A stretch of DNA of 64,000 nt from a virus, in the IMG/VR virus record IMGVR_UViG_3300027743_000025, positions 1-64,000 of that record. One strand, given 5' to 3'. This document shows, piece by piece, positions 19,103 through 21,477 of the stretch. The notes under the pieces are model-generated. The model ran no database searches. It was not told the origin of the DNA and saw only the letters and a program-made list of their open reading frames with translations. The position numbers and the translations under genes were made by a program. Position 1 is the stretch's first letter. The number at the start of each line of letters is the position of its first letter.

Positions 19103-19146
19103 GAGAGGGACGTACCGCCTTGACACGGGCCGGTACGTCCCTCTCT
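19103..19146. terminator. bidirectional terminator hairpin
   Basis: AGAGAGGGACGTACCG...CGGTACGTCCCTCTCT between convergent units. Confidence 0.8.
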
Positions 19147-19220
19147 TACTTGCGTAGCAACACGTACGCCCATAGGCAGCCAACAGCTATGAGCAGCAGG
19201 ACTCCAGACGTTGCGCTCAC
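19146..19220 (-). CDS. 24 aa membrane micropeptide
   Basis: MSATSGVLLLIAVGCLWAYVLLRK; GTGA overlap. Confidence 0.6.
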   Translation of the reverse strand: MSATSGVLLLIAVGCLWAYVLLRK

Positions 19221-19297
19221 CGCCTACCCCCCGCCGAGCTGAGCACGTAGAGCCAGAAGGCTATGGCCGCGATCGCGAGCCACTGGAGTATCTCCAC
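19217..19297 (-). CDS. 26 aa membrane micropeptide
   Basis: MEILQWLAIAAIAFWLYVLSSAGGRR; GTG directly after upstream TAG. Confidence 0.6.
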   Translation of the reverse strand: MEILQWLAIAAIAFWLYVLSSAGGRR

Positions 19298-19681
19298 CTA
19301 GCGAACCGCCCTACGCAGCGAGGTAGCCGGATCTACGTAGTGCTGTCCCGGGCCGGCCACGTGCCACACCATGCCATCGTTCACCGCGATCACGGTGTGA
19401 ACCCGCCGGTCACCCATCACGCCGTGCAGCTGGACCTTGTCCCCAGGCTTGAGTGGAGACTCCTCTAGCGCCTCGGCCTTAAGCGTGTAGGGCGGACGTA
19501 AGCTGCTCTCCTCCTCGGCAGGCTCCACCACCCAGCAGTAGATGCCGTGACACGCGATGACCTCCACCTCCACGCCCTTATGAAGGTAGATCTTCCCCGG
19601 ATGCGGTCTGTCAACCACAGCTTCCCACTTCCCTGTATGAGTTTGATCTAGCATCTGTGAGAGCGGAACGTGGATCACCAT
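19298..19681 (-). CDS. hypothetical protein with two KOW/SH3-like repeats
   Basis: VEVIACHGIYCW and VIAVNDGMVW; LKPGDKVQ. Confidence 0.7.
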   Translation of the reverse strand: MVIHVPLSQMLDQTHTGKWEAVVDRPHPGKIYLHKGVEVEVIACHGIYCWVVEPAEEESSLRPPYTLKAEALEESPLKPGDKVQLHGVMGDRRVHTVIAVNDGMVWHVAGPGQHYVDPATSLRRAVR

Positions 19682-19785
19682 GTCGGAGGCCAGAGATCCA
19701 GGCCGAATGCACGGCCGAGCATCAGCACCACGACCAGCACGACCGCCGCGACCAGCAGCCCGAGACCGAACCCTAGTCGCCTCAT
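19675..19785 (-). CDS. 36 aa membrane micropeptide
   Basis: MRRLGFGLGLLVAAVVLVVVLMLGRAFGLDLWPPTW; ATGA overlap. Confidence 0.65.
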   Translation of the reverse strand: MRRLGFGLGLLVAAVVLVVVLMLGRAFGLDLWPPTW

Positions 19786-19865
19786 GGCCGACCTATCCAC
19801 CAGCCGACAACGAACCCCAGAGCCAGGATGCCGAGCGCGATAAGTACGCCAGCCACGAGCATCAT
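19782..19865 (-). CDS. 27 aa membrane micropeptide
   Basis: MMLVAGVLIALGILALGFVVGWWIGRP; ATGA overlap. Confidence 0.65.
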   Translation of the reverse strand: MMLVAGVLIALGILALGFVVGWWIGRP

Positions 19866-19972
19866 GTCAACCACACCCAAACCAGCGTCCCGCCGATCAG
19901 GCAACCCCAGAGCAGGCACACGAGCACGGTGCCCCAGAGCAGCCGAATCAGGTCCCGGCCGAAGTTATCCAC
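19862..19972 (-). CDS. 36 aa membrane micropeptide
   Basis: MDNFGRDLIRLLWGTVLVCLLWGCLIGGTLVWVWLT; 8-nt overlap. Confidence 0.6.
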   Translation of the reverse strand: MDNFGRDLIRLLWGTVLVCLLWGCLIGGTLVWVWLT

Positions 19973-20060
19973 GACCCCGGTCCCCGCCGAGCCAGTAGCC
20001 GACTACGAACCCGAGCGTCCCGGTCAGCATCAGAAAGAGGAGCAGTTCCCATACAGTCAT
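19965..20060 (-). CDS. 31 aa membrane micropeptide
   Basis: MTVWELLLFLMLTGTLGFVVGYWLGGDRGRG; TGATG coupling. Confidence 0.65.
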   Translation of the reverse strand: MTVWELLLFLMLTGTLGFVVGYWLGGDRGRG

Positions 20061-20344
20061 CAGAAGATATCCAAGTCAACAGCGCTGAGACGATCGGCAG
20101 GATGCCACCGGCCATCAGCGGGATCGAACGCGAAGCAGTCGGGAGACAGCTGCCCGACCACCTTGGTTGACATATACATTTCATCGTGGATCCGCTTGCA
20201 CATCACGTGGACCGAGTGATTCTGCCAGACGAAAAACACCACGACCAGCGGACCGAGCAGGGCCAGGCGGACCAGCGACCTGCGCAGGAACCCAGCCTCA
20301 TAGAACGAATCTGCCCACTCGCCCATGTCCGAAATTACATGCAC
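20060..20344 (-). CDS. membrane protein
   Basis: single TM; coupled operon. Confidence 0.65.
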   Translation of the reverse strand: MHVISDMGEWADSFYEAGFLRRSLVRLALLGPLVVVFFVWQNHSVHVMCKRIHDEMYMSTKVVGQLSPDCFAFDPADGRWHPADRLSAVDLDIF

Positions 20345-20437
20345 CTAGCGCCTCCGTGTCACGTAGATAATGGCTGCCATGTATGCGATGAAGATCAGGC
20401 TCCACAGCACTATCCACCAGGCGGCATCAGCTGTCAT
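20345..20437 (-). CDS. 30 aa membrane micropeptide
   Basis: MTADAAWWIVLWSLIFIAYMAAIIYVTRRR. Confidence 0.65.
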   Translation of the reverse strand: MTADAAWWIVLWSLIFIAYMAAIIYVTRRR

Positions 20438-20441
20438 GCGC

Positions 20442-20693
20442 TTACCCCGTGATCTTGTAGTCCTTTGCATGCCCGCCGCGCGGTCGCTTTGGAAGCATGC
20501 TGCCGAGTAGCAGAGATGCCCCGAAGGACACCAGGATGAAGCTGAGCACCCACCAGGGTTTACCGGGTCCGTGTACCGCGAACGCGAGGACGACGACTCC
20601 CCACAGCTGGAGCATGATGAGCGCGACGCGACACTTCCACGTTGCCTTGACCGCCGCCACCGCTTGATCCAGCCACTCATTGTTATAGTCCAT
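20442..20693 (-). CDS. 2-TM membrane protein
   Basis: two hydrophobic helices. Confidence 0.7.
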   Translation of the reverse strand: MDYNNEWLDQAVAAVKATWKCRVALIMLQLWGVVVLAFAVHGPGKPWWVLSFILVSFGASLLLGSMLPKRPRGGHAKDYKITG

Positions 20694-20702
20694 GGCCAGA
20701 TC

Positions 20703-21335
20703 TTAATCCCACGGGAACACCTTCACCTTGCCAGGTATCGGCGAGCCGCACTCAGCCGACAGAGCGGCATCAGTCTCCACCGGGATACGTAGCCCGTAGC
20801 GTTTGGCGATCTCCACGAACCGTTGCGTGTAGAAGCAGGCATCAATGTCCGGCAGCCAATTCTCCGGACCCTGCCCAGCCTTGGCCCGTTGAACCCCCGC
20901 CTCAATCACGATCAGGTTGTCAAGATCATTGTAGAAGTGCTGCCGAGCCTCTTGGTCCCACTTCCATGCGCCGTTCACCCAGGCCCACTTCTCCGGAACG
21001 ATGTGGTTGACAGTCACGGGGATGTCGTTATCCAGCCCCGGCTCCAGCAGAAGGCCCGTGTAGGGAGACACCAGCCAGCCGCCGAAGATCTTGCAGCCAA
21101 CTCGTTTCTCATTGTGCAAGTCCCGAGCCAGCGCGTCCGACCGGGAGTCACAGCCGCTCTTGTCAGTGTCGGCCCAGTCCCCGAACGCGCCCTCCTGATA
21201 GCTCGGGGTGACAGTAGGTGGAGCCTCATGGACTGCCGTTTGCAGCCACGTCCACCAGGATCCCGCCGTACATACCAGCAGCATGCCGATCACCAGCAGC
21301 AGCGAGAACGGCCACGTGCGCCACCATTTAGCCAT
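20703..21335 (-). CDS. membrane-anchored DUF1524/GmrSD-type HNH nuclease-family protein
   Basis: FGDWADTDKSGCDSR...SPYTG...HIVP..AW...FYNDLDNL...KAGQGPENWLP; N-terminal TM. Confidence 0.85.
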   Translation of the reverse strand: MAKWWRTWPFSLLLVIGMLLVCTAGSWWTWLQTAVHEAPPTVTPSYQEGAFGDWADTDKSGCDSRSDALARDLHNEKRVGCKIFGGWLVSPYTGLLLEPGLDNDIPVTVNHIVPEKWAWVNGAWKWDQEARQHFYNDLDNLIVIEAGVQRAKAGQGPENWLPDIDACFYTQRFVEIAKRYGLRIPVETDAALSAECGSPIPGKVKVFPWD

Positions 21336-21336
21336 G

Positions 21337-21477
21337 TCACCCATCCAGGAACTTGACGAACCACCAGTTGCGATAGAGATAGAGCCAGTCATGGATCATC
21401 AGAACGAACCCGGCCGCCAGCGCCACGACCACGATGAGCAGCATCGTGAAGCGGAGCCACCTCGGCCAGCGACTCAC
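21337..21477 (-). CDS. 46 aa membrane peptide (not in ORF track)
   Basis: MSRWPRWLRFTMLLIVVVALAAGFVLMIHDWLYLYRNWWFVKFLDG; GTGA overlap. Confidence 0.6.
   Translation of the reverse strand: MSRWPRWLRFTMLLIVVVALAAGFVLMIHDWLYLYRNWWFVKFLDG

Follow-up and report, generated by a model that had tools for sequence, protein, structure and literature searches.

The stretch of DNA analysed here, hereafter the window, comprises the first 64 kb (64,000 nucleotides, nt) of an 86,173-bp virus record in IMG/VR (IMGVR_UViG_3300027743_000025), with a GC content of about 62% (59-66%). Between positions 21477 and 19146 its minus strand carries an array of 12 back-to-back genes, running from m46 to m24, and a transmembrane (TM) segment is found in 11 of these 12 consecutive genes. 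Eight of them encode micropeptides of 24-46 amino acids (aa), each built around a single helix. We find that these micropeptides are encoded by real genes, most of them under purifying selection.

All TM assignments derive from hydropathy windows (a 17-residue Kyte-Doolittle mean and a 19-residue scan). An earlier note on this DNA had described eight small open reading frames (ORFs), each with one hydrophobic helix, joined by overlapping or near-abutting junctions, sharing two short motifs and interleaved with further membrane proteins, and this architecture is borne out. The eight ORFs are all present and all on the minus strand; their maximum 17-residue mean lies between 2.05 and 3.10 in each case, and lysine and arginine residues number 0-3 per helix flank and at most 5 per peptide. 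The interleaved membrane proteins are p83, with two TM helices, p94, with one, and a TM-anchored nuclease. Counting that of the upstream 88-aa gene into m46, all 12 junctions measure between -8 and +9 nt: four are 4-nt overlaps of the ATGA/GTGA type, one is an overlap of 1 nt, and at two the genes abut exactly. A clear Shine-Dalgarno match is absent at most array starts, a scarcity that, together with the tight junctions, fits genes that are probably translationally coupled. The motif LGFVVG(W/Y)W(I/L)G is common to m27 and m31, and W.YVL to m26 and m24. Over the former motif m27 and m31 are identical at 25 of 33 nt, and this one motif suggests that the two genes may be paralogues.

The six reading frames of the 86-kb genome contain 817 ORFs of 20-60 aa, and in 29 of them the 17-residue hydropathy mean reaches 1.8 or more. 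The 2.3-kb array holds seven of these 29, where 0.78 would be expected (Poisson P = 1.8e-5); m30 drops out of this count, its longest-start form being 111 aa. In all eight micropeptide frames the GC content is 0.64-0.85 at the third codon position (GC3) and 0.38-0.52 at the second (GC2), as in long genes.

The only full-length relative is one 86.5-kb contig, represented here by L003, L004, L007 and L008 (and by L005, a duplicate of L004), which was retrieved by IMG/VR scans (four of five queries returned it, the fifth nothing), by a metagenome scan, which also gave a 2-kb contig (L006), and by protein search. This relative is syntenic with positions 26887-17283 of the window at 67-84% nucleotide identity (67-83% for L003). 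Five micropeptides (m46, m36a, m36b, m26 and m24) recur in L003 in the same order and frame, at near-equal length and with 57-89% identity, and the ratio of nonsynonymous to synonymous substitution rates (dN/dS) ranges from 0.11 to 0.53 among them, with 0.28 for m46. When the five are pooled, differences at codon positions 1, 2 and 3 number 36, 17 and 59 (chi-square P = 7e-6), and the proportion of synonymous differences (pS, 0.42) exceeds that of nonsynonymous ones (pN, 0.15; Fisher P = 9e-10); for m24 the corresponding codon-position counts are 3, 2 and 12. The charges flanking the helices are likewise retained, as in GGRR/GGKR and LLRK/VLNKK. What L003 has in the slot of m31 is a hydrophobic ORF of 29 aa, in which 7 of 28 residues are identical (25%) and dN/dS is 0.72; both peptides have an acidic N-terminus and a basic C-terminus. 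Conservation of the frames in relatives, which the earlier note had named as a point on which its proposal could be refuted, thus holds for five of the eight genes and for m31 in slot and topology only; m27 and m30 are absent from L003 as whole genes. Beyond this pair of genomes, m46 has four distinct orthologues (46, 46, 51 and 46 aa) sharing WP.WLRFTM...HD...RNWWF; a profile search with m46 across 1.84 billion representatives returned two proteins, both members of this family, and no other relative. The features of the array and its surroundings are collected in Table 1.

Table 1 Features of the minus-strand unit, from its predicted promoter to its terminal hairpin (window coordinates; identity and dN/dS refer to L003 unless stated otherwise)
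Feature	Coordinates	Strand	Description	Comparison with the relative
Sigma-70-like promoter match (candidate)	23467..23494	-	TTGACT-16-TAGATT with TG before the -10; 9/12 consensus; six bases upstream of ATG 23460	
Proximal half of the unit	21737..23460	-	Eight genes of 60-92 aa, seven predicted soluble	71-84% nt identity, syntenic with L004
76-aa protein	23030..23260	-	Second gene; two hydrophobic segments by inspection (19-residue scan flags one), basic tail	
88-aa protein	21474..21740	-	Soluble; stop overlaps m46 start (GTGA)	Best-conserved gene of the unit; 83% identity, dN/dS 0.18
m46	21337..21477	-	46 aa; single TM helix between a basic N-terminus and an aromatic tail (RNWWF)	
210-aa protein	20703..21335	-	N-terminal TM anchor and GmrSD_C/DUF1524 (His-Me finger) nuclease domain	67% identity
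p83	20442..20693	-	83 aa; two TM helices, basic C-terminal tail (holin-like by architecture only)	60% identity, dN/dS 0.30
m30	20345..20437	-	30 aa, RRR at end; GC3 0.74	Lineage-specific cassette
p94	20060..20344	-	94 aa; single TM	58% identity, dN/dS 0.21
m31	19965..20060	-	31 aa	Slot kept, sequence not
m36a	19862..19972	-	36 aa; starts MDNFGRDL	75% identity, equal length, dN/dS 0.53
m27	19782..19865	-	27 aa; ATGA at both borders	Lineage-specific cassette
m36b	19675..19785	-	36 aa; starts MRRLGF	89% identity (39 aa there), dN/dS 0.16
p127	19298..19681	-	127 aa; predicted soluble, inside the array	55% identity, dN/dS 0.42
m26	19217..19297	-	26 aa	88% identity, equal length, dN/dS 0.22
m24	19146..19220	-	24 aa; last gene of the unit	88% identity (25 aa there), dN/dS 0.11
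Terminator-like hairpin	19102..19146	-	16-bp main stem, no U-tract; begins at last base of m24 stop	

Comparison with the relative and with shorter contigs shows that the gene set is turned over by gain and loss of whole cassettes that leave the junctions intact. Relative to L003, m27 is an exact 80-nt insertion placed between two ATGA start/stop overlaps, and m30, which occupies the gap between the p83 stop and the p94 GTG, is missing there as an exact ORF-sized indel. Two further groups of contigs, X2 and X3, are known from difference tables in which 40 of 217 differences are listed. The X2 contig, of 1,898 nt from a soil metagenome, covers the p127, p94, p83 and nuclease genes, skips m30 and m24 (86 nt becoming 15 letters) and has 252 other letters in place of 19618-20061. 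An X3 contig of 814 nt from sediment spans 19936-20437 (m31, p94 and m30) with 28 differences and no gap, at about 94% identity, and another X3 contig has 19179-19576 exchanged for 677 letters. Among the differences listed, all four in p94 fall at codon position 3, as judged from their coordinates. These contig comparisons thus mark the larger genes as a stable scaffold and the micro-genes as the variable part of the array.

Some details of these comparisons deserve separate mention. L003 carries, at 5573-5914 (+), an additional gene for a 113-aa cysteine-rich soluble protein between the nuclease and the 2-TM protein, with no equivalent in the window. At junction 19297, between p127 and m26, X2 shows a 1-nt deletion at TAG/GTG; a GTG start would still share the G of the stop codon, so that both genes could be intact in a shifted relative frame. 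Short matching pieces over 19709-19768 and 21404-21586, mostly less than 90% alike and continuing into unlike sequence, probably represent unrelated GC-rich membrane-helix sequence and were left unused.

The earlier note had placed the array at the distal end of one long operon. This placement has to be revised: the array makes up the distal half of a 4,315-nt, 21-gene unit extending from 23460 to 19146, and does not form the end of the replication operon. The minus-strand replication genes stop near 25831, facing a plus-strand block at 23543-25853. At the head of the unit lies a sigma-70-like match predicted to act as its promoter, which forms a divergent pair with a second sigma-70-like site at 23508-23536 (+). 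Five sigma-70-like sites occur in 8 kb, against 2.0 +/- 1.4 in shuffled sequence, an excess that is weak by itself, and tandem TTGAC boxes are kept in the relative whereas the -10 hexamer is not. At the other end, the terminator-like hairpin has a folding free energy of -41.4 kcal/mol (z -5.7), equalled by none of 200 shuffles, and its stem is conserved in L003. It appears to separate the minus-strand unit from plus-strand ORFs at 17989-19027 and may thus be bidirectional. It is the combination of promoter-like site, hairpin and a separate end of the replication operon that leads us to regard the array as the distal half of a unit of its own. In the proximal half, the single family match is that of the gene at 22609-22839 to phrog_9642, a family of unknown function.

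The large genes of the record identify a siphovirus-like phage, with PHROGs matches for major head, major tail, portal/protease, tape measure, DNA polymerase, helicase and primase proteins. In tblastn its capsid protein is matched best, at 38-40% identity, by phages of Arthrobacter, Microbacterium and Gordonia. None of the 801 matching records reaches 60%, and actinobacteriophages account for nearly all of them (with 495 from Mycobacterium, 188 from Gordonia and 68 from Microbacterium). A freshwater-sediment metagenome is flagged as the possible source of the DNA, and no RNA run was listed as containing the array. The array itself gave no nucleotide match in 50,697 deposited phage records, searched in near and distant modes. 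Capsid matches below 60% and the lack of a nucleotide match among deposited phages therefore point to an uncultured actinobacteriophage lineage. No prophage relative was found in a scan of bacterial genomes. Elsewhere in the window, very hydrophobic micro-ORFs with high GC3 occur at 6476-6547 (-), 5764-5835 (-) and 310-411 (+), encoding 23, 23 and 33 aa with 17-residue means of up to 3.76, and the phage may carry further tiny membrane genes beyond the array. Outside the window, two adjacent ORFs of 58 and 39 aa at genome positions 84967-85143 (-) and 85162-85281 (-) have a near-identical hydrophobic C-terminal helix and look like paralogous tail-anchored peptides.

Genes of 24-31 codons lie below the length limits of common gene callers and are hence largely missing from phage annotation. 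The array was described in the earlier note as unannotated, and exact look-ups, using V- and M-initial forms of each product, sustain this for m24, m26, m27, m30 and m36a, none of which is on record; m36b and m31 are on record exactly, the latter from three contigs, and m46 appears as a shortened 35-aa call. The 88-aa protein is represented by three proteins in a collection of 5.8 billion. A tblastn search of deposited and cultured phage records with p94, p83 and p127 gave no match, and a protein atlas search no usable one. The 210-aa protein matches Pfam PF07510 at E 2e-6, with a score exceeding the gathering threshold, and has a TM segment by hydropathy scan. Distant relatives of this nuclease in phages are labelled 'membrane protein' in Gordonia phage Finkle and 'HNH endonuclease' in Rhodococcus phage Dorin, where the gene contexts were uninformative. 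The nuclease, whose domain contains four cysteines, is conserved in L003 and L006 and is possibly displayed outside the cytoplasm. Among the papers listed by a literature search for micro-helix gene arrays in actinobacteriophages, none describes one.

Before a function can be considered, it must be asked whether the micro-ORFs could be an artefact, either because the true gene is a plus-strand ORF of 179 aa at 19680-20219 or because they are pieces of a decayed or frameshifted multi-TM gene. The opposite-strand ORF spans four micro-ORFs and has a 248-aa counterpart in L003, at 6431-7177 (-), and neighbouring micro-ORFs are offset by -1/+1 frames, as such a reading would have it. We nevertheless reject both versions and consider an artefact very improbable. 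Along the antisense ORF the GC profile is flat (0.59/0.58/0.68), and the alignment of its product between the two phages is no more than patchy. The third-position substitution bias tracks the minus-strand micro-ORF frames despite their mutual offsets, and the separate ORFs keep their starts, stops and polar N-termini in L003, which a single broken gene would not explain. The antisense ORFs opposite the array in both phages, being flat in GC and poorly conserved in product, are therefore best seen as an artefact of high GC content and a possible trap for gene callers. A neutral origin, in which the array consists largely of young hydrophobic micro-ORFs, only some of them functional and the rest froth in a permissive region, can draw on the lineage specificity of m27 and m30, the divergence of m31 from its slot-mate, the X2 relative that does without m24 and m30, and the ORFan status of all families tested. 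Such an origin appears improbable in view of the clear purifying selection on five members, of indels that correspond to exact whole ORFs with start/stop junctions preserved, and of the diverged m31 slot, which still retains length, hydrophobicity and a basic C-terminal end.

As far as the sequence informs us, the description of the array in the earlier note as a library of membrane peptides is apt, in that its genes are under selection, share one orientation, adjoin closely and come and go as cassettes. Our preferred reading, put forward tentatively, is that of an accessory, fast-turnover membrane module most likely serving exclusion of competing phages or remodelling and takeover of the host envelope. 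We favour it on four grounds: the unit stands apart from the late genes, a host-type promoter match lies at its head, one of its products is a TM-anchored nuclease, and its cassettes turn over in a conflict-like manner; fast turnover of cassettes is typical of conflict-type accessory genes. The micropeptides would insert into the host cytoplasmic membrane, five of them N-out/C-in and three N-in by the positive-inside rule, and would serve, in the course of infection, to modulate membrane proteins or the integrity of the membrane; jointly with the anchored nuclease, they would exclude competing phages or remodel the host envelope rather than time lysis. In a more elaborate version, which we hold to be rather doubtful, the unit would be a modular arsenal whose ATGA-delimited, coupled cassettes are free to enter, duplicate, diverge or disappear while their neighbours stay unaffected, each directed against a different membrane protein of host or competitor (receptors, transporters, defence pores), beside a nuclease destroying incoming DNA. 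Several points weigh against the membrane-module reading. The candidate promoter is a consensus match only, with a -10 hexamer that is unconserved in the relative, and early expression is hence only a possibility; the outward topology of the nuclease follows from the positive-inside rule only; and the evidence of selection comes essentially from one full-length relative, with small counts per gene (for m36a, 19 differences at a dN/dS of 0.53). Neither Pfam nor PHROGs, NCBIfam or PADLOC yielded an informative match for the tested micropeptides or for the 76-, 83-, 94-, 127- and 88-aa proteins; PHROGs covered five of the eight micropeptides (m30, m31, m36a, m36b and m46) and Pfam four (these without m30). 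The proposed function is thus argued from gene context and from the likeness to other small phage membrane proteins, and has no basis in homology; the two 2-TM, basic-tailed proteins of the unit would fit lysis equally well.

Control of lysis has to be considered in two forms. The earlier note had raised the idea of a distributed holin, having seen no holin beside the endolysin. The latter observation is correct: the endolysin candidate at 40995-41864 (-), an Rv2525c-like glycoside hydrolase (Pfam PF08924, E 3e-27) located 19.5 kb from the array, has no adjoining TM gene. The distributed holin itself receives no positive support. Holins measure roughly 60-150 aa, and the eight micropeptides share with them the TM domain, and neither the size, at 24-46 aa, nor a charged C-terminal domain, nor adjacency to the endolysin; no holin family was matched in PHROGs (five of the eight micropeptides), in Pfam (four of the eight) or by the larger proteins of the unit. 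The genome's most holin-like architecture belongs to a 79-aa protein at 9719-9958 (+), which combines two TM helices with a strongly basic tail at its C-terminus and is encoded far from the endolysin, and another holin-like candidate lies at 38891-39121 (+). In the second form, the 83-aa and 76-aa 2-TM proteins would supply the holin or pinholin, with the single-helix peptides as antiholins or regulators, jointly releasing an endolysin anchored at its C-terminus. It is unusual for an endolysin to be anchored in the membrane by its C-terminus; signal-arrest-release (SAR) endolysins have their anchor at the N-terminus. The candidate endolysin has a strongly hydrophobic C-terminal helix of its own and no flanking TM gene, and two proteins of the unit combine two TM segments with a basic tail. 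In mycobacteriophages, lysis pairs of a protein with two TM domains (TMDs) and one with a single TMD have been reported to regulate lysis, and in D29 the gene for one partner lies at a distance from the cassette (10.64898/2026.08.27.747656; PMC13056207), so that a role of the array in lysis is conceivable. We judge it unlikely all the same: the micropeptides are smaller than the regulators described there and lack a charged C-terminal domain, no holin family is matched, the unit lies apart from the structural and lysis genes with a sigma-70-like site at its head, the two plus-strand proteins are alternative holin-like candidates, and the quick gain and loss of members would be odd in an essential timing device. 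A toxic action, with depolarising peptides of type I toxin or host shut-off kind collapsing the proton-motive force and thereby arresting the host or aborting competitors, fits the peptides in size and single-helix architecture, and overproduced small phage TMD proteins can inhibit growth, though not uniformly, according to one study (PMC10700055). We nonetheless hold this to be a decidedly unlikely explanation, since junctions of -8 to +9 nt leave no space for the individual promoters, leaders and antisense RNAs of type I systems, and eight toxins in one unit without evident control would be hard to tolerate. A single weak minus-strand promoter-like match (20437-20409, 9/12) was found inside the array and no other, Rfam not having been run.

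The immediate value of these results is modest, and consists in better annotation and in defined candidates for expression tests. They bring to light five tiny genes of 24-31 codons and three slightly larger ones, shown by comparison to be real and, for the most part, selected, and they expose a clean turnover mechanism in which whole cassettes are exchanged between overlapping start/stop junctions. Should the peptides turn out to modulate membrane proteins or to act in exclusion, the array would constitute a compact source of inhibitors of the actinobacterial envelope and a marker of phage-phage competition; if they control the release of an anchored endolysin, it would represent an unusual lysis system.

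Several known systems bear comparison with the array. Small inner-membrane proteins such as T4 Imm, Sp and HK97 gp15 exclude incoming phage DNA, and are encoded by single genes of about 60-100 aa. They resemble the array unit in being small phage membrane proteins of accessory or variable appearance; there is no homology to them, and no named family in PHROGs or Pfam was found for the array peptides tested. Among bacteria, AcrZ, MgrB, MgtS, KdpF and CydX are small single-pass membrane proteins. Proteins of this kind share with the micropeptides a length below 50 aa, one helix and few flanking charges, and modulation of larger membrane proteins is a plausible common action; they are mostly solitary and individually regulated, whereas the micropeptides are phage-encoded, clustered and without homology to them. 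A 27-aa bacterial member of this class, YohP, and the class as a whole are treated in the literature (PMC7549839; PMC12648545). Type I toxins (Hok, Ldr, Ibs, TisB and Fst) have a small hydrophobic helix in common with the peptides and come with their own promoter and leader and an antisense RNA, for which the junctions of the array leave no space.

Further parallels are found in actinobacteriophages. As in the unit described here, LysF1a/LysF1b and the D29 pair LysA2a/LysA2b combine a 2-TMD protein with a 1-TMD partner, and one partner can be encoded remotely (PMC13056207; 10.64898/2026.08.27.747656). LysF1a, at 88 aa (PMC13056207), is larger than the micropeptides, the array has eight 1-TM peptides and not one, and no homology emerged via the family libraries. 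Lysis cassettes of actinobacteriophages often contain several small TM proteins, and the small membrane-protein genes of these phages are, like those of the array, small one-TM ORFans packed tightly with 4-nt overlaps (PMC10700055; PMC9671378). The array differs from them in having 11 membrane genes among 12 in a row, five of them at 24-31 aa, at a distance from the endolysin. Mycobacteriophage Hammy has seven TMD proteins in its whole genome (PMC10700055), and the density of the array set against this genome-wide figure favours a membrane module. By host phylum, coding evidence and TM content alike, the array falls within the annotation class 'actinobacteriophage small membrane protein'. Small TM proteins are already common in actinobacteriophages, and the array is a further case, in a high-GC actinobacteriophage, with clear cassette borders.

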